Made by a program: the position numbers and the translations under genes. Source: Dehalococcoidia bacterium (GTDB taxonomy: Bacteria > Chloroflexota > Dehalococcoidia > Lucifugimonadales > UBA1123). Taken from it: a DNA stretch of 64,000 nt. The notes below the pieces were generated by a model. It worked only from the letters and a program-made list of their open reading frames with translations. It was not told where the DNA came from and did no database searches. Positions within the stretch are counted from its first letter, which is position 1, and each line of letters begins with the position of its first letter. Location: the NCBI GenBank assembly GCA_965249365.1, contig OZ252229.1:234977-298976 (forward strand), read 5' to 3'. Below, piece by piece: positions 11,561-24,735 of the stretch.

Positions 11561-12220
11561 ATGATGGATGATCATATCGAAGCAGTGCTGGTTGTTGAGC
11601 GAGGTGTGGCCGACTTCAGCGTCGTCCCGATCGAGCACTCAAACTGTGTACTCGGGAAGTCGGCAGGAGCGAGCATAATTCTCGACAATCCATACGTGTC
11701 TCGTCGACACGCACGAATCCGCCAGCGCAGCGGTGAATTCGAAATAGAGGACCTAGGGAGCAAGAACGGCACCCTGCTCAACGGGAGCCGTATACGTTCG
11801 GGCCGTCACCCGTTGCAGCCGGGCGACCGAATCGAGCTGGGTCGAGGACAGGTGGTCCTTCGATTTCAGATGGGCGGGTCTACCGTAACCCTGCCTCCGG
11901 ATCACAAGCCGGACGTCGAGGACCTGGTAGTCAACTCCCGTTCCCGCGAGGTTTGGGTACGGGGTCGAAGACTGGACCCTCCCCTCTCCCGCAAAGAGTT
12001 CGATATTCTGAGTCTCATGTTCTCAAATCGCGGTCAGGCCTGCAGCAAGGACGACATAGCCATACACGGCTGGCCCGAACGACCCGATGGCGACGTCCCC
12101 GACCAGGACATCGAGCAGTACATCCGGCGCCTTCGGCTTCGCGTAGAGCTCAATCCGTCCAGGCCGACGCTCATCGTGAACGTCAGGGGATTCGGATACC
12201 GGCTCTCGAGTCGAAGATAG
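11561..12220 (+). CDS. FHA domain fused to an OmpR/PhoB-type winged-helix DNA-binding domain
   Basis: FHA: LGKSAGASIILDNPYVSRRHARI...EDLGSKNGTLLNG...GDRIELG. wHTH: LSRKEFDILSLMFSNRGQACSKDDI...IEQYIRRLRLRVE...VRGFGYRL. Confidence 0.85.
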   Translation: MMDDHIEAVLVVERGVADFSVVPIEHSNCVLGKSAGASIILDNPYVSRRHARIRQRSGEFEIEDLGSKNGTLLNGSRIRSGRHPLQPGDRIELGRGQVVLRFQMGGSTVTLPPDHKPDVEDLVVNSRSREVWVRGRRLDPPLSRKEFDILSLMFSNRGQACSKDDIAIHGWPERPDGDVPDQDIEQYIRRLRLRVELNPSRPTLIVNVRGFGYRLSSRR

Positions 12221-12302
12221 GTAATTCACGGGGTCTGGTTCGGATGCCTGTCATTTCAGGACCCCGGAGCTCCAGCGTTCGAGCCCAATCGGCTCTCCAA
12301 CG

Positions 12303-12330
12303 TTCAGCATCTTTTCAGGTCTTGTTCAGG
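12303..12330 (+). promoter_or_regulatory. three direct TTCAG(C/G) repeats phased at 11 bp (candidate wHTH operator)
   Basis: TTCAGC 12303, TTCAGG 12314, TTCAGG 12325. Located between the FHA-wHTH gene and the 3xFHA gene. Confidence 0.45.
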
Positions 12331-12462
12331 AACCCGAGTGGGAATCAGGTTACTATTGGCAGTGTTCACACCTGCTGAAGTCTCTTGCTGAACACCAACT
12401 GTCAACGTGAATCCGATATGCGGTCGTAGGCGAAAAGGATCCTCGGCCAGAGAGGTAGGAAA

Positions 12463-13950
12463 ATGGATCTCGGATACAGCGGAATTCTGGCGGTCTGGTA
12501 CGACACCTGGCTGTCCATGCTCGGATTTGTTGTCGCGCTTGCAGTCGCGTTTATGGTCGTCGTACGGGAGGACTGGCGTGGTCCCGGACCGGCAATAGTG
12601 GCGGTGCTCGTTCTGCTGGTCATTGCGGCCCTGCCATTGGTTTTTCTCCGCATGGGCATGGCCCTAATGATCGAGGACACGGCGCCGGTTGGCTACATCA
12701 GCCTGATCGGGACGCCACTGGCGATTGCACTTGGCATCGCACGGCTCTATCAACGCTGGGCGGCGGAACGTGAAGCTCTCGACGACGACTCGGTCTACGA
12801 CGAATACTCAGACGTCTATGATGGTGGACATACCATGACGGTCGTGGAGGACGTCACACCTCAACCTGGTCTGGACGTGTCTACTCCTGCTGATCCTCTT
12901 ACCGCACAGGGAACCACCGCGTGGCTGCGCTTCACCTCGGGGCCGAAGTCCGGCCAGTCTATCCCACTCTCCACCGGAACCGTCAATCTTGGGAGAGGCA
13001 TCGACAACGACGTGGTGTTGGACGACGCGTCTGTGAGTCGGAGTCACGCGACGATTGCCTTCCAGGGCGACCAATACTACATCGAAGACGCCGGAAGCAT
13101 GAGCGGCACCCTGGTGGAGGGCGTACCTGCCACCAGAACGGTGCTCGCGTCCGGGGCAACGCTGAAAATCGGCGACTCCGAGCTGGTGTTCATGCGGACA
13201 GAGGGAGACAGTCCGTTGACTGAATCCGGGACCGGTGCAAGCGGTACAGGGCCGGCCGGTCCTGGTGAGACAGTCGTGATGCAACGAGCAGGCAGGCAGA
13301 TCATGGCCTGGCTCGCGGTCGTCTCCGGACCGGCGAAAGGCGCCTCATACCAGCTCAACGAGGGCGACAACACCATCGGACGGTCGCCTGACAATGACAT
13401 GGTTGTCGAGGACACCGCAATCAGCCGCCGGCACGCACTTGTCAGGGTCCAGGACGACCGAATCGTGTTGGTTGATCTCGGGAGCAGCGGCGGAACGGCC
13501 GTCGGGGGTGGGAGACTCGAGGGCAAAGTCGTACCGGCAGGCGGTGTGGTCACCGTGGGTCAGACTCCGCTCCGGGTTGTGCAGATTGAAGCGCAGGACC
13601 AGCTGGAGCAGGGAACGATGTCGGGAGCGACGATTGTCGACACGCCTTCGGGCGGTTCCGCAGTCCTCATCGCACAGTCGGGCCCAGACAGTGGGCGAAG
13701 CTTCAACCTGTCGGAAGGCGACAACTCGATCGGACGGGACCCTTCCAGCGACGTCCTGCTCTCCGACGACTCGGTCAGTCGCCGGCACTCTTTGATCAGG
13801 GTCGAGGCCGATCGCATCCAGGTCTTTGATCTTGGAAGCCGGTCGGGAACGGTCGTTGACGGCGAGCTAATTCAGGGCCACGAGTTGACAGCCGACGACA
13901 CGATCTCAATTGGACGCTCAGAAATCGTACTAATGCGACCGAGTTCCTAG
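12463..13950 (+). CDS. membrane protein with three tandem FHA domains
   Basis: Three N-terminal hydrophobic spans, then three copies of (L/I)GR....D(V/M)V(L/V).D..(V/I)SR.H(A/S)......(Y/I/V)...D(A/L)GS..GT.V.G. Confidence 0.88.
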   Translation: MDLGYSGILAVWYDTWLSMLGFVVALAVAFMVVVREDWRGPGPAIVAVLVLLVIAALPLVFLRMGMALMIEDTAPVGYISLIGTPLAIALGIARLYQRWAAEREALDDDSVYDEYSDVYDGGHTMTVVEDVTPQPGLDVSTPADPLTAQGTTAWLRFTSGPKSGQSIPLSTGTVNLGRGIDNDVVLDDASVSRSHATIAFQGDQYYIEDAGSMSGTLVEGVPATRTVLASGATLKIGDSELVFMRTEGDSPLTESGTGASGTGPAGPGETVVMQRAGRQIMAWLAVVSGPAKGASYQLNEGDNTIGRSPDNDMVVEDTAISRRHALVRVQDDRIVLVDLGSSGGTAVGGGRLEGKVVPAGGVVTVGQTPLRVVQIEAQDQLEQGTMSGATIVDTPSGGSAVLIAQSGPDSGRSFNLSEGDNSIGRDPSSDVLLSDDSVSRRHSLIRVEADRIQVFDLGSRSGTVVDGELIQGHELTADDTISIGRSEIVLMRPSS

Positions 13951-13958
13951 GAGTTCAG

Positions 13959-14951
13959 ATGATGGAGCGCCGTGGAGGCAGGAGAACCACCGCTGACGGG
14001 GGCGCGATCGAGAGCGTCGTTACGCTTGGCGCGCGGACCGATATAGGACTGAAGCGGTCAGCCAACCAGGACGCATACGTCGCGCTGATCGGCGCCAATG
14101 CCCCCTCCGACTGCGACGCGCTGCTTGCTGTTGCTGACGGGATGGGCGGACACAAGGCCGGGGAAGTCGCCAGCGACATGGCGGTCCGCTCTTTGGTCAG
14201 AAAGCTCGGGCGCCCGTCCCAAGGCGACAGGACGCCCGTGACAGGCGGACTCGTCGTGACAATCCAGCGCACCGTCTCAGAGATCAACTCGGAAGTCCAT
14301 AAAGCCGCTTCCCGCCCGGAGACGCGTGGGATGGGGACGACGCTGACGATGGCGGTCCTCACCGGTCAGTACCTCACTCTCGGCCACGTTGGAGACAGCC
14401 GCGCCTACCTCCTTCGCGACGGGCAGCTCCACCAACTTACGAGGGACCACAGTTGGGTCGCCGAGCAGGTGGCGCGCGGGTCGATCTCACCCGCGGACGC
14501 AGAGAGGCATCCTAGACGCAATATATTGACGCGGGCGATCGGGGTGGACCCCAGAGTGGAGGTCGACACCACGACTGTAGAGGTCAAGGAGCGGGACCTC
14601 GTCTTGCTCGCATCGGACGGGCTCCACTCCCTGGTTACGGACGGCGAAATCGCCGAGATTCTCGGGGGCGGCGATCCGCAGGCTGCCAGCAGGGAGCTTG
14701 TCGGCCGGGCAAACGCCCTCGGTGGCAACGACAACATCACCGTCGTTGTCGTCAGGATCGAGAGCCTGGGTCCGCGAAGGCCGTCGGCCATGGGGGTTCA
14801 TGACGCCACGACCGTACTGTCCGGCGGGTCTCCAGCCCCAAGCCTGCGTGGGGCGCTGGCGATCGCCGGGAAGGTCTTGTCGGCCCCTCTGTGGCTGCCT
14901 GTCCTATTGCTTTACCGGACGGCGAGGCGGCTGTTCCGCCGCGGATCGTAG
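13959..14951 (+). CDS. PP2C-family Ser/Thr protein phosphatase with C-terminal membrane anchor
   Basis: NQDAY...VADGMGGHKAGEVAS...GMGTTL...GDSRAYL...ASDGL...GGNDNITVVVV. C-terminal LSAPLWLPVLLLY. Confidence 0.9.
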   Translation: MMERRGGRRTTADGGAIESVVTLGARTDIGLKRSANQDAYVALIGANAPSDCDALLAVADGMGGHKAGEVASDMAVRSLVRKLGRPSQGDRTPVTGGLVVTIQRTVSEINSEVHKAASRPETRGMGTTLTMAVLTGQYLTLGHVGDSRAYLLRDGQLHQLTRDHSWVAEQVARGSISPADAERHPRRNILTRAIGVDPRVEVDTTTVEVKERDLVLLASDGLHSLVTDGEIAEILGGGDPQAASRELVGRANALGGNDNITVVVVRIESLGPRRPSAMGVHDATTVLSGGSPAPSLRGALAIAGKVLSAPLWLPVLLLYRTARRLFRRGS

Positions 14952-15158
14952 CAGTCGGTTTCAACGACCTCAAGCACTTCGACTTGAGACGGGTGGACGC
15001 CCGCGCCACCAGAGGATAGGCCCCGATGAGTACGGGCTTCCAGACGGGGCGGGATGGGTCCGCGAGCGCCTGTGGAGCTGCCGCTCCGGGCAGTGCTCTG
15101 ATTGAGTGCCGGAGGTTCCGGCGCGACTGGCTAGTATCGAAGATACGCAGTGGAGTGA

Positions 15159-18100
15159 ATGGCTGAGCATAGGATGCAGCAGCAGATCATAGGCAGATAC
15201 CAGATCCTCGAGCAGATCGCGGCCGGTGGCCAGGGGACGGTCTATCGAGCGTGGGACACTTCAACCGGAAGAGTCGTAGCGCTCAAGGTGCTGCATCCCC
15301 ATATCGCAAACGACTCCGACGCCCTGGAGAGATTCTACCGCGAAGCCCGCATCGCGGCCTCAGTCACTCATCCAAACGTCACCCAGATATTCGAGGTCGG
15401 ACAGGACGGGGACTACCACTTCATCTCCATGGAGTACCTGCCGATCAGCATCTCCAGCCTCGTAGAGGCACAGGGGAGCCTTCCGGTCGAACGCGCCACT
15501 GCAATCTGTCTCCAGGCAGCTCTAGCGCTGAATGCTGCGAGCCGTACCGGAATCATCCACCGAGACATCAAGCCCCAGAACCTCTTACTTGCCCAGGATG
15601 GAACGGTAAAGGTCACCGACTTCGGCATCGCAAGGGCCACCGCGCTTTCTACGATGACCCGAACGGGCGCTCTGATGGGGACTCCGTACTACATGTCACC
15701 CGAGCAGGCAAGGGGCAGCCGCGTTGACACGCGGTCAGATCTCTACTCCTTGGGCATCGTCCTCTACCAGCTGCTGACCGGAACCATCCCGTTCGACGCC
15801 GAGACCCCTTGGGAGGTGATCCGACAGCACATCGAGGAACAGCCACCGTCTATACGTCAGTCGAGGCCGGACATCCCGGCCGCCCTTGAAGAGGTGGTGA
15901 ACCGGTGCCTGGAGAAGGACCCGAACCTTCGGTTCCAAACACCCTCCGATTTTGCTCAGGCACTTCGACAGGCGGTGCCCGTCGCTCGGACGAGACCCGA
16001 ACCAACCGAGACACCGCCAGCGCCTGTCGGGCCCTCGCCCACTCGGCGGCCGGCCGCTCTGCGGCGGCCGGTTACACCAGAGCGGCCGGTCACTCCCCAG
16101 ACGCCGACTACACCGACGGAACCGGATTCTGCTCGACGACCGGCTCTCCAACCGCAGCCGAAGCCGGATACGTCCTCGAGCGCCGACCGGGGACGAGCCG
16201 GCAGGACCCCAACGGGGACCCGGCCCGCGAGAACATCCCGAGACGTCCGCGCCAGACGCGGGCGAAGCTGGAGGTGGTACGCAGGGATCGTCCTTCTCGG
16301 TGTGCTCGTTCCGATAGGGATTATCGCACTCATAGCTCAGCTCGCTGGGTCGGGCGGGATTTCGGGGCCTCTTCCGACGCCGATTCCGAACACCCCGGTC
16401 CCACCGACTGCTACGCCGGCGCCCGTCGTGATTGTGCCGCCGCCGGACACGCCGACGCCTGAGGTCCGCGTCACCGCAACACCGCCGCCTACGGCTACAC
16501 CCGTTGCGGTCGTACCGCCACCGGGCACCCCCACGCCGACGCCCGGTGCGGCCGTGACGCCTGTTCCAGTGAACAACGCCCCCGAGGCTGTATCTGCGAT
16601 CGACGCTCTGAATCTATCGATTGGCGCCGACGCAGAGTTGGTGGACGTCATGGGCGCGTTCCGGGACCCGGACGGCGACAGTCTCACCTACTCGGTTTCG
16701 TCGTCGGACTCGAACGTCGCGACGGCGAGCATGTCCGGCCCGGTTGTGACGGTCTATCCAATCGGCGCAGGCCGGGTGACGATCACTGTGACGGCCAGTG
16801 ATTCGGAAGGCTTGGCCGTGTCTCAGACCATCAACGTTACCGTCGACGAGACACCGGCTACTGTCACGATACCCGACGCGGGCCTCCGCGAAGCGATTTA
16901 CGCGGCGTTGGAAAAGGAGAGCAGCGAGCCGCTGACAGCGGCTGAGATGACGACTCTTCTACGCCTTGAGGCCGACAACAGGGGGATAGTCGATCTCACA
17001 GGGCTCGAATACGCCACAGACCTCGAGGAGTTGATAGTTGAGAACAACTCGATTTCGGATCTGTCCCCATTGGCTGGCTTGAGCCAGCTTGTGTATTTGA
17101 TTCTCAGCGGCAACTCGATATCTGATATCTCACCGTTGACTGCCCTGGACAGGCTCACAAACCTCTATCTCTGGGATAACTCGGTGTCTGATCTATCTCC
17201 TCTCGCCAACTTGAATGAGCTCAGAAACCTGGGGCTATTCGGCAATTCAATCTCCGACTTGTCTCCGCTGGCGGGCTTGTCCAACCTGAGGAGTCTGGAT
17301 CTTGGGACAAACTCCATTTCAGACCTTTCAGGACTCGAGGTCTTGGCCGAGTTGGAGACCCTTCGGCTCGGCATCAACTCGATCACTGACGTCTCTGCGC
17401 TGGCCGGTCTAAGGGAGCTTCAGGACCTCGAGCTCGGAGGCAACTCCGTCACAGAGGTCTCGCCACTGGCCAGTCTGACAAACCTAAGATATTTGGGGCT
17501 CTGGAATAACGCAATATCCGACCTTGAGGCATTGGTCGCCAACCCTGGACTGGGAGAAGGGGACGAGATCGACGTCACCCTCAACCCTCTCAGCGACGAC
17601 TCGATCAGCACACACATCCCGACCTTGCAGAAGAGAGGCGTAAACGTACTGCTCGATGCCAGTGAAGTCACCGATCTGGTAGAACCGCCGCCACCCGTCA
17701 CAGACCTTATTGTGGAGAGCATCACGAGGGTGCCCATGGACGCCCTCGTGGGAGACACCGTCACCATTACGGCGACGGTCACGAACCTGGGGCCGGGAAC
17801 TGTGGGATCGTCGGAAGTCCGGTTCATCGTGGATGACTCGACAGATCCATTTGCGGTAGCCGAGACCGCTGAGCTCGTTCCAGGGAACGCGGAGGTTGTA
17901 ACTGTCCCGTGGAAGACCGAGGCGGGTTCTCACACGTTCAGAGTAGTCGCAGAAGTGAGGGACGACCTCGACGAGTCCGACGAGTCGAACAACGAATTGA
18001 CGGTTACGTTTGAGGGTGGAGACCGACATCGCCTCGTTTGGCAGTTTGAGATAGACAGCTCAGGGTATGTCTCTACACCGGCAGTCGCTGATGGCGTTGT

Positions 18101-21100
18101 ATATGTTGGCTCCAGAGACGGCCATCTATACGCGCTGGACGCGCGAACCGGAGAGATTGAGTGGCGGTCCGAGGTGCCCGGTGGCGCAGCTTTCCCTACG
18201 CTTGCCGACGCGTCGGTCTACGTCGGCTCTTGGGGTAGAGGCTTGTTCAAGCTGAACGCGTCGACCGGCGAGCTGCTCTGGCGCTTCGAGACGGTCGGTC
18301 GGGTGTGGTCCACTCCGGCCATCGTCGATGGGGTCATCTACTTTGGATCTGGGGACAGTCACGTCTACGCGGTGAACGCCTCCACCGGGGAGTTGCTCTG
18401 GCAGCATCAGACTGGGGACGCGGTGTACTCTTCCCCGGCAGTTGTTGGCGGGGTCGTATTCATCGGGTCTACCGACAGTCGCGCCTACGCGCTGGACGCC
18501 GCGACCGGCCAGCCGCTGTGGGAACACGAGACGGGCGACGCCGTGTTCTCTTCCCCGGCGGTGGTCGACGCGGTGGCGTACATCGGGTCGGATGACAGCT
18601 ACGTCTACGCGCTCGACGCCGCCACCGGGGAGGTGGTCTGGCGGCATGAAACTGGAGGCTACGTGCAGTCCTCCCCAGAGGTCGTTGACGGGATTGTGTA
18701 CGTCGGGTCTGGCGACCGGAACTTGTACGCGCTCGGTGCGTCGTCGGGAGAGGTTGTTTGGACATACGGAATTCCCGTTGGCGAGCCCGGGTCACCAAAG
18801 GTCCACGATGGAACAGTCTACGTGACTGCGGGCAGCGACGAGGCGAATGCGATCGTCGCTCTCGATGCGGCCAACGGACAGTCTCTGTGGCGATTCGACA
18901 CCGGCGACGGCTGGATATCCTCGGCCCCAGCGCTTGCTGACGGCCTGGTGTACGTGGGATCTGCCTCCGGCCACGTGTACGCGTTGACGACCGGGGTAGA
19001 AGGCGCAACCGATTCCGGACCTGCGCCGCTACCTGACCTGATCGTCGAGAGCGTCACCTGGGAACCGCAAAACCCGTCCGTCGGCGACCCCGTCACGTTC
19101 AGAGTGACCGTCAGAAACCAGGGGATGGCGGACGCCGTAGGCCCGTTTCCGGCAGTCTATGCCGTCTCCGGTGAAACAACCCAGCGCGGCACCGCAACCA
19201 TCGACGGCATCGCCCAAGGCGGCAGACAGGTCCTGGACTTCAATTGGGAGGCCGAGGCTGGTGAACACACGGTCAGCATCGTAGTTGACCCCGATGGAAC
19301 CGTTGATGAGTCCGACGAGTCGAATAACGAGGCGGTCGTTGCGTTCGATGAGACCCTATTAGCGGACCTGTTGGTCGAGAGCATCAACTGGGAGCCCGAG
19401 AGTCCGTCAATCGGAGACTCGGTCAGGCTGTTGGTGGTAATTGCAAACGAGGGCGCCGGCGACGCAGGACCTTCGAGTGTCCAGTTCTTTGTCGACGGGG
19501 GACTCGAGGCCTCCGAAACCGTGAGCGGAATCGGTGCGGGCAAACAGCGAACCAAGGAATTCGTATGGATAGCCCAATCTGGGCCCCACTCGATCCGGAT
19601 CGTCGTGGACCCAGATGGACAACTCACAGAGTCGGACGAGTCCAACAACGAGTCTACCGTGGAGTTCGATCTGGCAGACGAGACTGACACGACAGAGACG
19701 CCTCCTTCAGCGGCTCGGGAACCCTTCGGCGACCTCTTCAAACTTACCGATTTAGAAGTTGCTCCGTCCGATGCGCCGACCGCGGTGTACCAGCAGTTCG
19801 GCAGCGACTGGCGAGTCGCGGACTGGAACGACCTCAGGCTGGCCTGGGAGGTCTATCGCGATGACCTGATGACCGTTTTCGAAGGGGTGGAGCCTCTGGT
19901 GACCTGGTTCGGTGAACCCAAATGGGCCGATGAACGCTGGTTCTTCATCCGGGACCACAACGGTAATAAACCGGGGGGGTTCCATGCGCACAACCAACTC
20001 GGAGGAGACGAGCTGTCCCTCGGTTCATGGTTCCGAAGCCCCAATGAGTGGACTGTGCTCGCGGTCCGGACCGACTTCAAAGTTGACCCGCTAGGACCGG
20101 ACGACCACGGCGACTCTCTAACCACGGCATCAACTCTGACTGTCGGGGAGCGGCTCTCGGGTGACATCGAAGTAGAAGACGACGTGGACTACCTCTTCTT
20201 CCGCGGTGAACGGGGAGTCGAGTACGTCGTGAAGGCTCTCGTCGGGTCAAACCCAGATACGTTCATTACACTGCTCGGACCGAACGGTTCGGTTCTAGCC
20301 GAGGATGACGATAGCGGAGAGAACCAGGGGTCAATGATTATCTGGAGAGTCAGGACTCCGGGGAGCTACTACGTTAAGGTGAGCGGGTTCGCATCGGATG
20401 ACACCGGTTCGTATACGGTGACTCTGAGCAAGTCCTCTGACGACCACGGAGACACGGCTGGCGAAGCGACACGACTCTGGCCGGGTGTGTCGCACGAGGG
20501 GAACATTGAAGAGAGCGACGATCAGGACTTCTTTTCTTTCCGCGCGGAGGAAGGGGTTGAATACGCCATCGAAACCGATCTCGGGACCAATCCGAACACA
20601 GTGATCGCGCTGTACGGCCCGGACGAAGACTTCGTCGATCGGGATGACGACGGGGGAGAGGGGGCTGCTTCCGCCCTGGTTTGGACCGCCCCTGTCTCAG
20701 GGACGTTCTATATCCGCGTGAGCGGTCGGTACGACAACAGCGTCGGCTCGTACTCACTGTCATTGGACGCCGAACGGTCCAGCTCAGGTAACTCCGTGTA
20801 CCTAGTCTCTGGCGAGCTCAACCGAGAGCAGCTCAATGTTGCCCGACCCGTCGCAACCGTGGCGCCAGAGCAGCGGATCGACGGAACCGTTACGATCGCC
20901 GTCGCAAACCACAACCGACCGGATCGGGTTTTTCCGTTAGGGGCAACGCCTTCATGGGGAAACCACAAAGAGAGCTACTGGATCATCGACGCCTGGGTCC
21001 CTCCGGGTGCGGTAACTGAATATGACGTGTACTTCGGCCTCGTCGCGCCGTCTGCACCAGGCGCCTACGCCATTACTTTCGCCGCCGCAGCCGCGGAGTC

Positions 21101-21293
21101 ACTGGGCCACGCAATGTCGGCCACACAGTCGGCGTCCGGGGACCCGCTCTGGAACAACGGAGACGACGTCGCGTCGTGGGACCTCTCGCAGGTCGAGTTC
21201 GCCCAGGTGAACGGCTACGTCGTAGGAACGACTCACCCTGATACCCCAGTCGAGTTCGGAGCGGCGTCGATTTCGGTAGTTGTTACGCGTTGA
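15159..21293 (+). CDS. giant receptor Ser/Thr kinase: Hanks kinase - TM - Ig/cadherin-like - LRR - CARDB - PQQ-type beta-propeller - 2x CARDB - unknown - 2x PPC - unknown
   Basis: GGQGTVY..VALK..HRDIKPQN..DFG..SPEQ. TM IVLLGVLVPIGIIALIAQL. About ten 22-aa N(S/A)ISDLSPLAGL LRRs. Repeated VYVGS.D..(L/V)YALDA.TGE..W blades. LIVES(I/V)...GD.V......N.G....DESDESNNE CARDB-like units. DDHGD....A..L..G....G.I...DD.D(Y/F)F.F PPC-like units. Confidence 0.85.
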   Translation: MAEHRMQQQIIGRYQILEQIAAGGQGTVYRAWDTSTGRVVALKVLHPHIANDSDALERFYREARIAASVTHPNVTQIFEVGQDGDYHFISMEYLPISISSLVEAQGSLPVERATAICLQAALALNAASRTGIIHRDIKPQNLLLAQDGTVKVTDFGIARATALSTMTRTGALMGTPYYMSPEQARGSRVDTRSDLYSLGIVLYQLLTGTIPFDAETPWEVIRQHIEEQPPSIRQSRPDIPAALEEVVNRCLEKDPNLRFQTPSDFAQALRQAVPVARTRPEPTETPPAPVGPSPTRRPAALRRPVTPERPVTPQTPTTPTEPDSARRPALQPQPKPDTSSSADRGRAGRTPTGTRPARTSRDVRARRGRSWRWYAGIVLLGVLVPIGIIALIAQLAGSGGISGPLPTPIPNTPVPPTATPAPVVIVPPPDTPTPEVRVTATPPPTATPVAVVPPPGTPTPTPGAAVTPVPVNNAPEAVSAIDALNLSIGADAELVDVMGAFRDPDGDSLTYSVSSSDSNVATASMSGPVVTVYPIGAGRVTITVTASDSEGLAVSQTINVTVDETPATVTIPDAGLREAIYAALEKESSEPLTAAEMTTLLRLEADNRGIVDLTGLEYATDLEELIVENNSISDLSPLAGLSQLVYLILSGNSISDISPLTALDRLTNLYLWDNSVSDLSPLANLNELRNLGLFGNSISDLSPLAGLSNLRSLDLGTNSISDLSGLEVLAELETLRLGINSITDVSALAGLRELQDLELGGNSVTEVSPLASLTNLRYLGLWNNAISDLEALVANPGLGEGDEIDVTLNPLSDDSISTHIPTLQKRGVNVLLDASEVTDLVEPPPPVTDLIVESITRVPMDALVGDTVTITATVTNLGPGTVGSSEVRFIVDDSTDPFAVAETAELVPGNAEVVTVPWKTEAGSHTFRVVAEVRDDLDESDESNNELTVTFEGGDRHRLVWQFEIDSSGYVSTPAVADGVVYVGSRDGHLYALDARTGEIEWRSEVPGGAAFPTLADASVYVGSWGRGLFKLNASTGELLWRFETVGRVWSTPAIVDGVIYFGSGDSHVYAVNASTGELLWQHQTGDAVYSSPAVVGGVVFIGSTDSRAYALDAATGQPLWEHETGDAVFSSPAVVDAVAYIGSDDSYVYALDAATGEVVWRHETGGYVQSSPEVVDGIVYVGSGDRNLYALGASSGEVVWTYGIPVGEPGSPKVHDGTVYVTAGSDEANAIVALDAANGQSLWRFDTGDGWISSAPALADGLVYVGSASGHVYALTTGVEGATDSGPAPLPDLIVESVTWEPQNPSVGDPVTFRVTVRNQGMADAVGPFPAVYAVSGETTQRGTATIDGIAQGGRQVLDFNWEAEAGEHTVSIVVDPDGTVDESDESNNEAVVAFDETLLADLLVESINWEPESPSIGDSVRLLVVIANEGAGDAGPSSVQFFVDGGLEASETVSGIGAGKQRTKEFVWIAQSGPHSIRIVVDPDGQLTESDESNNESTVEFDLADETDTTETPPSAAREPFGDLFKLTDLEVAPSDAPTAVYQQFGSDWRVADWNDLRLAWEVYRDDLMTVFEGVEPLVTWFGEPKWADERWFFIRDHNGNKPGGFHAHNQLGGDELSLGSWFRSPNEWTVLAVRTDFKVDPLGPDDHGDSLTTASTLTVGERLSGDIEVEDDVDYLFFRGERGVEYVVKALVGSNPDTFITLLGPNGSVLAEDDDSGENQGSMIIWRVRTPGSYYVKVSGFASDDTGSYTVTLSKSSDDHGDTAGEATRLWPGVSHEGNIEESDDQDFFSFRAEEGVEYAIETDLGTNPNTVIALYGPDEDFVDRDDDGGEGAASALVWTAPVSGTFYIRVSGRYDNSVGSYSLSLDAERSSSGNSVYLVSGELNREQLNVARPVATVAPEQRIDGTVTIAVANHNRPDRVFPLGATPSWGNHKESYWIIDAWVPPGAVTEYDVYFGLVAPSAPGAYAITFAAAAAESLGHAMSATQSASGDPLWNNGDDVASWDLSQVEFAQVNGYVVGTTHPDTPVEFGAASISVVVTR

Positions 21294-21302
21294 CTGGAGA
21301 TG

Positions 21303-21341
21303 TTCAGGTGAACTTCAGAAAGCCATAAGCACATGTTCAGG
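21303..21341 (+). promoter_or_regulatory. TTCAG(G/A) direct repeats phased at 11/22 bp upstream of the second kinase
   Basis: TTCAGG 21303, TTCAGA 21314, TTCAGG 21336. Located 65-100 nt before the STK2 start. Confidence 0.4.
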
Positions 21342-21405
21342 ACTGGCTGGGGACTGGTGGTCTACTATTTCGGCAGCCAAGTGAGCAAGTCCGGACCGGC
21401 GAACT

Positions 21406-24400
21406 GTGGGAGTAGTCATGCAGCAACAGACGATAGGCAGATACCAGATACTCGAGCAGGTTGCCGCAGGCGGCCAGGGTACCGTCTATCGCGCGTGGGA
21501 CACCTCGACCGGGCAGGTCGTCGCGCTCAAGGTGCTGCACCCGCACCTGTCAGCAGACCCGTCCATCCTCGAGCGCTTCCACAGGGAAGCGCGCCTCGCG
21601 GCTTTCGTCTCGCATCCGAACATAACCCAGATCTTCGAGGTTGGCCAGGACGGCGACAGGCATTTCATCTCCATGGAGTACCTCCCGGTCGGCATACACA
21701 GCCTCATCGAGGCGCAGGGAAGCCTCCCTATCGAGCGTGCCGCCGAGATCTGCCTACAGACAGCTCTTGCGCTCCAGGCAGCCAGCGACCGTGGGATCAT
21801 CCACCGCGACATCAAGCCCCAGAACCTCCTTCTGGGTCAGGACGGCACCGTCAAGGTTACCGACTTCGGCATCGCGAGGGCCACGGCACTTTCAACGATG
21901 ACCCGGACCGGGGCCCTTATGGGAACGCCCCACTACATGTCACCCGAGCAGGCGCAGGGAACTCGTGTCGATATCCGGTCCGACATCTACTCTCTTGGGA
22001 TCGTGCTTTATCAGCTCCTCACCGGCGACCTGCCGTTCGAGGCGGACACGCCTTTCGAACTCATGCGCCAGCACATCGAGGAGCGGCCAGCGTCGGTCCG
22101 CGGGGCGCGATCGGCGGTTCCGCAGGCCCTGGAACGTGTGGTCAACACGTGCCTTGAGAAGGACCCTGATCGTCGATTCCAAACGCCCAACGAGTTCGTC
22201 CGGGCCCTGCGCCAGGCCGTGCCCGGCGCACGCGCTGCGCCGACACCGCAGCCGCCGATTCAGGCGCCGCCTGCGCAGCAACCTGCCTCCGCGGCCGAGA
22301 CTGCCGGTCGTCCTCCTGGTGTACCCGAGCAGCGGCCTGAAACCGCGCGGCCTCAAAGTCCCGGACCACGAGGGGAGGAACACGCCGGCAGGGGCCGCCC
22401 CCGGTGGATCTGGGTAGGGCTGGTGGTGTCCATCCTTGTGGCAGTCTCGGCCGTCGGCGTGACCTTCTGGGTCATCGACATGGCGCGTCGAGACGGCGCC
22501 ATCGTTGAGCCACTTCGTACACCGGTGCCAGCGACACCGGTTCGGATCGTGGTCGCTGCGCAGCCGACCCATACGCCGACCGGGATCTCGCCGGTCGTGG
22601 TTCCCCCGACGACCGTTCCGCCACCGACCAACACGCCCTTCGTCGTGGCGCCACCGGAAGTCGCGCCTCCGACGATCGACCCGACCGCAACTCCAGCGTC
22701 GGTCGTAACGCAGTCTACCAACACACCGACGGCTACTTCCGTACGCACCGTCGTCCGGATGACCGCCACGCCTACGGCAACCCCCGTACGCACCGTCATC
22801 CAAATAACCGCCACGCCTACGGCGACTCCCTCCCCCGTCGCAGCTCCACCCACGAACACCGCGACCGCAACTCCCTCCCCCGTCGCAGCTCCACGCACCA
22901 ACACCCCCACGGCTACTCCTTCCACTATCGTGCTGCGACCAACAAGCACGCCTCGACCGCGACCAACGAACACTCCTCTGCCGAGTCCTACCAACACCCC
23001 GAGGCCTCGACCAACTGCCACCCACACCCCAACGCCAGTCCCAGCAGTTGTGGCGCAACCGACAGCTGTGTCTGACGATCAAGGATTGCCCGCGGAACCG
23101 TCGGGGAGCGTCACGGTAGTCGTCCCACGCGTCTACAGACCACACGGGCTGCCTCGATCGTGCCCGGGTGGATGTTCAGAAGCAATGTACCTGTCGGGAG
23201 TGACCGAGACCCTATTGAACACAAGGTTTGAGAACGAGGGATCGGTCGCTGCCGAGCCGATGCTCGCCGAGTGGTGGGAGTTCGACGACAGCCTCCGGGT
23301 CCTCACGTTCGGCTTACGCCAAGACGTGATGTTCCATAGTGGCTGGGGCGAGATGAACGCATGGGATGTCGTCTTCAGTCTAGAAGATGCGATCATGAAT
23401 CCAGAGTCAACCCACGCTGCCAGATCATTCGAATCGATCGCGGCTGTATTTCTCTTAGACGACTTCACGGTGCGGGTAGAATTCAGGGAGTTCGACCCCA
23501 GGGGTGCCCTGTACTACTTGACACCGTTTGATTCTTCTGTTGGGATCGTTTCCGCCGACGTCTCGGAGTCCCACGACGAGGACGAGCTGCAGAGCCTCCT
23601 GATCGGGGTCGGCCCATTCGTGGTGGACGAGTGGGTCCCCCGTGAGAGTATTCGTTTGACCGCGCACCAGGAATACTACGGCCGCCCCCTCGGACTCGGG
23701 CCCCACGTTGAAAGTCTGCAATGGGTGGAAATCAATGAGGCTGCGGTACGAATGGCCTTTATTCATGCGGGACAGGCTCATCTGAGTACCTTAATGGATG
23801 CTGGACATGCGCGGGAACTCCTGAGTTCGGGACTGTTGCTGGAAAACAACGGCGGATCGGGAATGATGGGCGGCGTTTCTTTCGCCGGCAATTACTGGGA
23901 GGCACACAACCCATCGAACGGAGAAACGCTGGAGAGGACACGGGACATCAGCAAGCCTTGGATCGGTGACCCGTTTGAATTCGGACCGAGCTACGACGAG
24001 TCAACCCCCTCGATGGTGCGATCGCGGATGGTCAGGGAGGCCCTGGCCACGGCAACAGACCGAAACCTGATAAATGAGATACTGCTGCACGGGCTGGGCT
24101 CAGTCAACTATCAGCCCTCCCTGTCGGTCAACAGCCCCCTTCACGAGGACTGGATGCGCTGGGCATTCGACCCAGATCGGGCGTGGCAGCTTTTGGCAGA
24201 GGCGGGCTACCCTGACGGATTCGAGATGGACCTCTGGGTCGGACAGTCCCCAAGTAGGACAAGACTGGGCGAGGTTTTGGCAGCCATTTGGGCGGAGTAT
24301 CTTGGTGTCGAGATAGTTTTGGAGAGGGGATCTGTCCCGGAGTACAATGTAGGCCTCTTGGATAGAACTACGTCAACACCCGGTGTCAACCTTTGCTTTG

Positions 24401-24735
24401 GGCCTGAGACGAACCCTCTCTATCCGTCCGACTGGCCGAGAGGATTCTACGCGAGCAGCATGTCAGACTTTAGGGCTGGAATCGGTCAGGAGCTACCCCA
24501 CGCTTCTGAGATTTATAATGCCGCAATCGCTGCACCTGACAAGGGCACGCGTGAGACTCTCACGTTGGTTTCCATCGAAATCAACAGGTACTGGGCCAAC
24601 TGCGTCGGGGTCATCGAGCAGCCCAGGTGGACAGCGTTGAATCCAGACTTGGTCGCGGAATGGGGCTTCCTCCCGACTCTTTCCGGCACGCTGGGGGGTA
24701 TCACCAACGTCCGGTCGATCAAGGTCAGGCAGTAG
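21406..24735 (+). CDS. receptor Ser/Thr kinase fused to a family-5 (DppA/OppA-type) solute-binding domain
   Basis: The kinase domain is a close paralog of STK1. TM WIWVGLVVSILVAVSAVGVTFWVI. Pro/Thr linker. Ectodomain has GVGPFVVDEWVPRESIRLTAHQEYYG and FDPDRAWQLLAEAGYPDGFEMDLW, typical of SBP_bac_5. Confidence 0.85.
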   Translation: MGVVMQQQTIGRYQILEQVAAGGQGTVYRAWDTSTGQVVALKVLHPHLSADPSILERFHREARLAAFVSHPNITQIFEVGQDGDRHFISMEYLPVGIHSLIEAQGSLPIERAAEICLQTALALQAASDRGIIHRDIKPQNLLLGQDGTVKVTDFGIARATALSTMTRTGALMGTPHYMSPEQAQGTRVDIRSDIYSLGIVLYQLLTGDLPFEADTPFELMRQHIEERPASVRGARSAVPQALERVVNTCLEKDPDRRFQTPNEFVRALRQAVPGARAAPTPQPPIQAPPAQQPASAAETAGRPPGVPEQRPETARPQSPGPRGEEHAGRGRPRWIWVGLVVSILVAVSAVGVTFWVIDMARRDGAIVEPLRTPVPATPVRIVVAAQPTHTPTGISPVVVPPTTVPPPTNTPFVVAPPEVAPPTIDPTATPASVVTQSTNTPTATSVRTVVRMTATPTATPVRTVIQITATPTATPSPVAAPPTNTATATPSPVAAPRTNTPTATPSTIVLRPTSTPRPRPTNTPLPSPTNTPRPRPTATHTPTPVPAVVAQPTAVSDDQGLPAEPSGSVTVVVPRVYRPHGLPRSCPGGCSEAMYLSGVTETLLNTRFENEGSVAAEPMLAEWWEFDDSLRVLTFGLRQDVMFHSGWGEMNAWDVVFSLEDAIMNPESTHAARSFESIAAVFLLDDFTVRVEFREFDPRGALYYLTPFDSSVGIVSADVSESHDEDELQSLLIGVGPFVVDEWVPRESIRLTAHQEYYGRPLGLGPHVESLQWVEINEAAVRMAFIHAGQAHLSTLMDAGHARELLSSGLLLENNGGSGMMGGVSFAGNYWEAHNPSNGETLERTRDISKPWIGDPFEFGPSYDESTPSMVRSRMVREALATATDRNLINEILLHGLGSVNYQPSLSVNSPLHEDWMRWAFDPDRAWQLLAEAGYPDGFEMDLWVGQSPSRTRLGEVLAAIWAEYLGVEIVLERGSVPEYNVGLLDRTTSTPGVNLCFGPETNPLYPSDWPRGFYASSMSDFRAGIGQELPHASEIYNAAIAAPDKGTRETLTLVSIEINRYWANCVGVIEQPRWTALNPDLVAEWGFLPTLSGTLGGITNVRSIKVRQ
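22741..22920 (+). repeat. four 45-bp in-frame units (two pairs) in the Pro/Thr linker of STK2
   Basis: gtacgcaccgtc..accgccacgcctacggc twice (22741, 22786). tcccccgtcgcagctccac twice (22831, 22876). Confidence 0.85.

Follow-up and report, generated by a model that had tools for sequence, protein, structure and literature searches.

Hanks-type Ser/Thr kinases are abundant in bacteria, and to our knowledge direct wiring from such a kinase to a promoter has been described in only a few cases (EmbR, AfsR and some phosphorylated response regulators). One enzyme with an FHA input, Bdellovibrio DgcB, is activated by binding of its FHA domain to a phosphorylated tail. PhoB/OmpR response regulators take their input through a phospho-Asp receiver and act through a Trans_reg_C-type DNA-binding domain, and the Pho boxes are direct repeats about one helical turn apart that overlap or replace the −35 element and come in multiples of units. 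At the Streptomyces afsS promoter, an AfsR wHTH dimer binds two 11-bp repeats, with a TTCAGC at −38 to −33 in the upstream repeat; the general rule for SARPs puts 8 bp between the 3′ repeat and the −10, and AfsR binds DNA better once a Ser/Thr kinase has phosphorylated it (PMC10936776). EmbR has BTAD and FHA domains besides its OmpR-type domain and is activated by PknH (PMC4601284). In Myxococcus, FHA-σ54 enhancer-binding proteins carry an FHA domain in the receiver's place (Jelsbak et al. 2005, cited in PMC12288465). Our literature searches found no characterised FHA-Trans_reg_C (OmpR-type) regulator with a defined DNA site.

The locus considered here lies in a 64,000-nucleotide stretch of DNA (hereafter the window) from a marine SAR202 bacterium, a member of an uncultured lineage that is among the most abundant in the deep ocean; its genome is a single contig of 3.34 Mb with 61% GC. 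A gene for an FHA-wHTH protein is followed in the window by phased TTCAG repeats and by genes for FHA, phosphatase and kinase proteins. The protein shares a Trans_reg_C-type DNA-binding domain with PhoB/OmpR, but its input domain is FHA rather than a phospho-Asp receiver. With AfsR and EmbR the system shares an OmpR-type wHTH, 11-bp direct repeats, a poor −35 and, as we propose, control by Hanks-type kinases, whereas SARPs have their wHTH followed by a BTAD domain, and here the order is reversed, with FHA at the N-terminus and wHTH at the C-terminus of only 219 aa. The spacing differs too: in place of the 8 bp of SARP sites, the 11-bp unit ends ~16 bp from the −10. DgcB (PDB 6hbz/6hc1) and the Myxococcus proteins likewise have FHA in the usual position of the receiver, where it ties Ser/Thr phosphorylation to an output domain, but their outputs are GGDEF and AAA+/σ54, respectively, rather than an OmpR-type wHTH. 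The comparison supports reading the TTCAG arrays as a variant of the OmpR/SARP tandem-repeat theme that would define the regulon of an uncharacterised FHA-wHTH family.

From N- to C-terminus, the regulator comprises an FHA domain, a linker and an OmpR/PhoB-type winged helix, whose recognition helix is DQDIEQYIRRLRLR. Its Trans_reg_C match reaches 58.6 bits against a cut-off of 26.2, which assigns the domain to the OmpR/PhoB-type wHTH class, and PDB sequence matches of the C-terminal half are to the effector domains of RegX3, VicR/WalR, PhoP and PhoB. In the AF2 model (mean pLDDT 88.5) both domains are well defined, the linker is disordered at 112-119, and the wHTH shows the topology E-E-H-E-H-H-E-E (sheet/α1/α2/α3/wing) at pLDDT >90. 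While the FHA half superposes on the OdhI/GarA FHA domain at a TM of 0.87, the best 50 matches of the fold search covered this half only, so the wHTH assignment rests on Pfam, the PDB sequence matches and topology. Residues 1-105 are the FHA domain and Pfam detected no Response_reg match in the protein; lacking a receiver domain, it is not an OmpR/PhoB response regulator. Nor did Pfam detect a BTAD match, for which 219 aa leave no room, and the protein is not a SARP because it lacks this domain and its repeats stand at a different distance from the −10.

A functional FHA pocket is marked by a conserved Gly-Arg, Ser-x-x-His and Asn-Gly. Across 32 homologs, G32, S47, R48, H50, N69 and G70 are invariant, with Lys in place of the canonical Arg after G32. 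Thr108 in the linker is also invariant, within T-x-T-L-P, and the residue at +3 is hydrophobic in 32/32 sequences, while the rest of the linker is variable. FHA domains usually prefer pT-x-x-L/I, and the T-x-T-L context of Thr108 appears to fit this preference. A family search returned 840 matches; every one combines FHA with Trans_reg_C, and those with a named source belong to Dehalococcoidia, Chloroflexota or SAR202. The FHA-wHTH family thus has more than 800 members, essentially all of them from Chloroflexota/SAR202.

Gene calls made across the cluster in the original prediction were borne out by Pfam (Table 1), and no FHA domain was found in the host genome outside this cluster. Kinase 2 likely begins at ATG 21418 (MQQQTIGRYQ...), in frame with GTG 21406. 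From that start its N-terminus, MQQQTIGRYQILEQVAAGGQG, is nearly the same as that of kinase D (G000:C1:840997), MQQRTIGRYQVLNEIAAGGQG, and the two look like paralogous kinase modules with different sensor ectodomains, each with a phased site of its own. The gene order regulator, 3xFHA, PP2C recurs in other loci. None of the other 29 genomes in the genus has the cluster (11561-24735 in the window). It is often flanked by transposase/resolvase genes (loci L155, L156, L157 and L160) and in the window follows a tRNA-Lys islet with IS5 and Fic; this suggests that inheritance of the whole module is patchy, possibly horizontal.

Table 1 Positions of the regulator, its gene cluster, the phased repeats and the candidate promoter elements (window coordinates unless marked otherwise)
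Feature	Position	Strand	Description
FHA-wHTH regulator, 219 aa	11561..12220	+	Pfam FHA 3.8e-22, Trans_reg_C 6.7e-16
Extra TTCAGG	12255..12260	+	48 bp upstream of unit 1 of site A (4x11+4)
Site A	12303..12330	+	TTCAGC (12303), TTCAGG (12314), TTCAGG (12325), starts exactly 11 bp apart; upstream of 3xFHA / PP2C / kinase operon
−10-like TACTAT, site A	12351..12356	+	20 nt past last unit; placed by geometry alone
3xFHA membrane protein	12463..13950	+	Pfam FHA x3; first gene downstream of site A
PP2C-type Ser/Thr phosphatase	13959..14951	+	Pfam PP2C and PP2C_2; operon with 3xFHA gene
Ser/Thr kinase 1, 2,044 aa	15159..21293	+	Pfam; ectodomain with LRR, PQQ-propeller, CARDB and PPC modules
Site B	21303..21341	+	TTCAGG (21303), TTCAGA (21314), degenerate ATAAG (21325), TTCAGG (21336); before kinase 2
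−10-like TACTAT, site B	21363..21368	+	21 nt past last unit
Ser/Thr kinase 2	21406..24735	+	Pfam; SBP_bac_5 ectodomain
Site C	genome 974906	−	Before 2,099-aa RCC1/BACON/PPC/TSP_C surface protein
Site D	genome 841102	−	Before 701-aa kinase with PQQ propeller (kinase D)
Site E	genome 1093353	+	Before repeat lipoproteins, one carrying RCC1 repeats
Site F	genome 1098346	+	Before DUF3352 membrane protein
Pho-like box	G000:C1:1326203	−	Four TAACA(C/A)/TAATC units; upstream of pstS-like gene 1324810-1325979
Pho-like box	G000:C1:1422282	+	Four TAACA(C/A)/TAATC units at 11-bp phasing

We examined the repeats between the regulator and the 3xFHA gene (site A), which read acgTTCAGCatcttTTCAGGtcttgTTCAGGaaccc. 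The three predicted hexamers and their exact 11-bp phasing could be read directly from the letters, and the predicted distances also held, with unit 1 lying 83 nt beyond the end of the regulator's stop at 12220 and the last unit 133 nt before ATG 12463. A position weight matrix (PWM) gave the triple a score of 39.5, compared with at most 19.3 at a spacing of 12. The further TTCAGG that had been pointed out at 12255 is present but does not belong to the array: given its distance from unit 1 it is out of phase, so we ruled it out as a fourth unit, and it is probably incidental. There is no −35-like hexamer 16-18 nt upstream of the TACTAT at 12351. A generic scan of 12150-12520 came back with no σ70 −35/−10 pair and no terminator, and we accordingly dropped a canonical σ70 promoter, as well as a terminator between the regulator and site A, from consideration.

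To judge the phasing against the genome as a whole, we counted TTCAG on both strands of the 3.34 Mb. There are 6,514 copies, and therefore ~0.006 exact phased triples are expected at any one fixed spacing; three were found at a spacing of 11 and none at the nine other spacings tried (7-10 and 12-16). The original prediction had called the phased clusters unlikely to be chance, and these counts exclude chance, although its estimate that the hexamer occurs about once per 4 kb per strand was off, TTCAGG being found about once per 3.0 kb per strand. In an unbiased count, TTCAG ranked first of all 1,024 pentamers for 11-bp-phased triples, so the phased motif is not a feature of random DNA in this genome; the second-ranked pentamer, TAACA, marks the genome's Pho boxes and serves as an internal control. 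The same pentamer count contained a strong 12-bp GAGGT periodicity arising from EVPVEV(I/V)KEV sequences, which form long tandem repeats in two lipoproteins (G000:C1:1093614-1096559), one of them ending in RCC1 repeats.

The second cluster predicted before kinase 2 was confirmed, with TTCAG units at 11-bp steps from 21303 (site B), which is among only four loci of the genome with at least three perfect TTCAG in four phased slots. A relaxed scan, in which one weak unit or a G in first position was tolerated, yielded six sites in all (A-F), with PWM scores of 24-42, compared with at most 17 for the next matches and at most 22 at off-phase spacings. All six lie between genes, run in the same direction as the gene that follows and share one layout of three to four [T/G]TCAG units, the last of them TTCAGG or TTCAGA, then 20-22 nt and a TAnnnT hexamer (TACTAT, TACTAT, TAACAT, TATAAT, TATCGT and TAGCAT, respectively). 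Across the genome, only 1.9% of TTCAG copies have a TAnnnT at +19 to +22, compared with 6/6 sites. At none of the six is there a usable −35 hexamer 16-18 nt upstream of the −10 candidate. Taking the latter as −12 to −7 puts the units near −38, −49 and −60, with the fourth, where present, at ~−71; at site A the three would be centred near −58, −47 and −36. At least two direct repeats with a 10-11-bp period near or over the −35, the arrangement of an OmpR/PhoB-type operator, are found at all six promoters, and judged by its sequence elements the layout is that of an activator-dependent promoter. A mobile or REP-like repeat was ruled out, as the sites have in common only the phased cores and the −10. 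Taken together, the phased TTCAG triples are, on this computational evidence, a real and conserved control site before six kinase and cell-surface genes. A G-rich patch ~6-13 nt past the last unit occurs in sites A-D (GAGTGGG, CTGGGGA, CGGGGGC and GAGGGGC; 12331-12350 in the window for A) and is missing from sites E and F; this could represent one more, degenerate unit or an element of the spacer.

The same layout recurs beside the regulator in most of ~30 orthologous SAR202/Dehalococcoidia loci. Across 19 genome loci searched for three phased KTCAG at ≥14/15, we obtained nine matches at a spacing of 11, compared with 0-2 at spacings of 9, 10, 12 and 13; they sit between the regulator and the 3xFHA gene, directly behind the regulator's stop, with a TAnnnT 19-21 nt downstream. 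Among 12 further metagenomic loci, 10 carry the site by a strict criterion and the remaining two carry degenerate versions in which the proximal unit and the −10 are kept. Conservation in orthologous loci, on which the predicted site stood or fell, is thereby borne out. At one locus (L156) an inserted IS element now separates the regulator from the site, which has remained beside the 3xFHA gene. Genome-wide, the motif tracks the regulator gene: six regulator-positive genomes hold 15 phased triples (2.5 each), compared with eight in 54 regulator-negative genomes (~0.15 each), and a reversed-pattern control gave six triples in 61 genomes. Three regulator-negative genomes have an ortholog of target F, and no repeats were found upstream of it. 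Extra sites in other genera precede FHA genes (one followed by T2SSE/T2SSF) and a kinase. In the subfamily with Ser at residue 187 of the regulator (L164, L165, L166 and L035), no 3xFHA gene follows the regulator; the G-G-skip-G site is instead found upstream, on the other strand, and points to a small divergent gene (90-114 aa) without a Pfam family.

How the regulator's recognition helix varies relative to the repeat bears on which protein reads the site. Across the family the helix, D-Q-[ED]-I-E-Q-x-I-R-R-L-R-L-R, hardly varies, in keeping with the invariant TCAG core of the unit. The exception is residue 187, which changes in step with the unit's variable first base: loci with Tyr187 have T in 16/18 units and G in none, loci with Ser187 have G in 12/12 units and always in a G-G-skip-G arrangement with a skipped unit as at site B, and loci with Cys187 are mixed, though these observations are not independent events because the covariation follows clades. 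Such covariation is what direct readout would predict. On the other side, sites E and F carry GTCAG in their distal units, which the host protein with its Tyr187 would need to tolerate; an array of three units sits oddly with a family that forms dimers; and the Gly-Lys of the FHA pocket departs from the canonical Gly-Arg. The phasing, the conservation, the association with the regulator gene and the covariation with the helix nonetheless lend computational support to the earlier proposal of a tandem site for OmpR/PhoB-type winged-helix oligomers at the two promoters, and each computational check listed with that proposal came out in its favour.

We therefore regard the repeats as probably a tandem site for the adjacent FHA-wHTH protein, most likely an activating one and presumably under phosphothreonine control. 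Winged helices would line up head to tail along a single face of the DNA, one per 11-bp unit, with the proximal unit at ~−38 to −33, over the missing −35 of a promoter whose −10 is TACTAT. The bound oligomer most likely recruits RNA polymerase in the manner of class-II or 'sigma-adaptation'-like activation, as PhoB and SARPs do, and so would switch on the 3xFHA-PP2C-kinase operon. Five other promoters would be governed by the same type of site, those of kinase 2, a third kinase, the RCC1 surface protein, the RCC1 lipoproteins and the DUF3352 protein. With FHA standing in for the receiver domain, phosphothreonine binding would control oligomerisation and DNA binding, the phosphothreonine coming from the regulon's own kinases and/or from linker Thr108 of a neighbouring protomer. 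The co-transcribed PP2C would reset the system, giving a kinase-to-transcription loop, and the predicted circuit feeds back on itself because its targets include three kinase genes.

The identity of the binder can be weighed against the rest of the genome, which encodes only three Trans_reg_C proteins: the FHA-wHTH regulator, a PhoB homolog adjoining a histidine kinase and pstSCA, and RR2 (1299494-1300174). That RR2 or the PhoB homolog binds the repeats, their position next to the FHA-wHTH gene being a coincidence, seems to us very unlikely. Some support for it comes from G040, a genome of another family, which has two sites of four GTTCAG units at 11 bp (L111:5297-5340, + strand; L112:5533-5576, − strand), preceding a 58-aa ORF and a PAS-domain gene. 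No FHA-wHTH protein or DQxIEQ-type helix was found in G040, whose three Trans_reg_C proteins have TRTVDVH-type or other helices; since it has such near-identical sites with only classical or RR2-like regulators, another wHTH can evidently read a similar repeat. The unit GTTCAGG also resembles actinobacterial PHO/afs boxes. RR2, however, is kept at 67-76% identity in 29/30 genomes of the genus, which lack both the FHA-wHTH gene and the phased motif, and it was ruled out as the binder on this ground. The PhoB homolog has boxes of its own: the pstS promoter carries four 11-bp-phased units with a TAACAC/TAATCC core and no KTCAG, the last of them 8-10 nt from the −10. These follow the same logic as the TTCAG sites, but differ in core (TAACA rather than [T/G]TCAG) and in distance to the −10 (20 nt at the TTCAG sites, where three-unit arrays are common), which excludes a Pho-box reading of the latter; their targets, too, are kinases, FHA, PP2C and surface proteins rather than a Pho regulon. 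Finally, the site adjoins the FHA-wHTH gene in ~25 independent loci and covaries with its helix. In the two Pho-like boxes of Table 1, which look like classical Pho boxes, the units keep exact 11-bp phasing and the last one is followed at 8-10 nt by a −10 reading TAAAGT or TAATGT.

Granting the FHA-wHTH protein as the binder, the same array could instead act as a repressor or roadblock over the −35 region, shutting the promoters until phosphorylation frees the regulator. Several observations are compatible with this: the −35 position falls within reach of the proximal unit, which overlaps it; with no terminator behind the regulator gene, read-through could likewise be gated by a bound array; and the OdhI/GarA-type FHA proteins, the closest FHA relatives, are inhibitors switched off by phosphorylation. 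Against these stand the absence, at all six promoters, of a usable −35 hexamer 16-18 nt from the −10, which is typical of activator-dependent promoters, and the reach of the units to ~−70, as in PhoB and SARP activation sites; we consider repression unlikely. A reader of a different kind altogether, whether an unrelated factor, an RNA-level one (CsrA-like on repeated CAGGA) or a curved-DNA/UP-like promoter element, we hold to be extremely improbable. CAGGA does occur in some units, and the repeats at site A could be transcribed, no terminator separating them from the regulator, but at sites C-F they lie upstream of the predicted −10 and would be absent from the transcript, GGA is missing from units such as TTCAGC and GTCAGT, and strict 11-bp phasing with an invariant TCAG core follows the logic of a DNA face. 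A leader hairpin considered downstream of the −10 at site A (GTGTTCA...TGAACAC) was rejected, its fold being no better than that of shuffled sequence (z = −0.14), and the predicted leader shows no significant structure.

Returning to activation by the FHA-wHTH protein, the pieces could be assembled, tentatively and with considerable doubt, into a class of 'phosphothreonine response regulators'. In this scheme the regulon's receptor kinases would phosphorylate Thr108 and the FHA domain of the next protomer would bind the pThr in trans, giving a head-to-tail chain that fits the 11-bp register of 3-4 units; such zippering would replace receiver dimerisation, PP2C would reset the chain, the kinase genes among the targets would provide positive feedback, and residue 187 would set the first base of the unit (Tyr, T; Ser, G; Cys, any). 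Even apart from this scheme, the locus offers a compact kinase/FHA-wHTH/PP2C module with a DNA motif, a promoter geometry, a predicted regulon of six promoters and a candidate specificity residue, and the motif permits regulon prediction over hundreds of MAGs. The operator unit also has a counterpart in the genome of locus L031, where a perfect tandem array of ~21 copies of an 11-bp unit, GTCAGCCCCTG/GTCAGCCATTG (L123; G061:C1:3951999-3952223), has the same core and period, at a distance of ~95 kb from the FHA-wHTH gene there; this may be a titration-type 'super-site' or no more than a simple tandem repeat.
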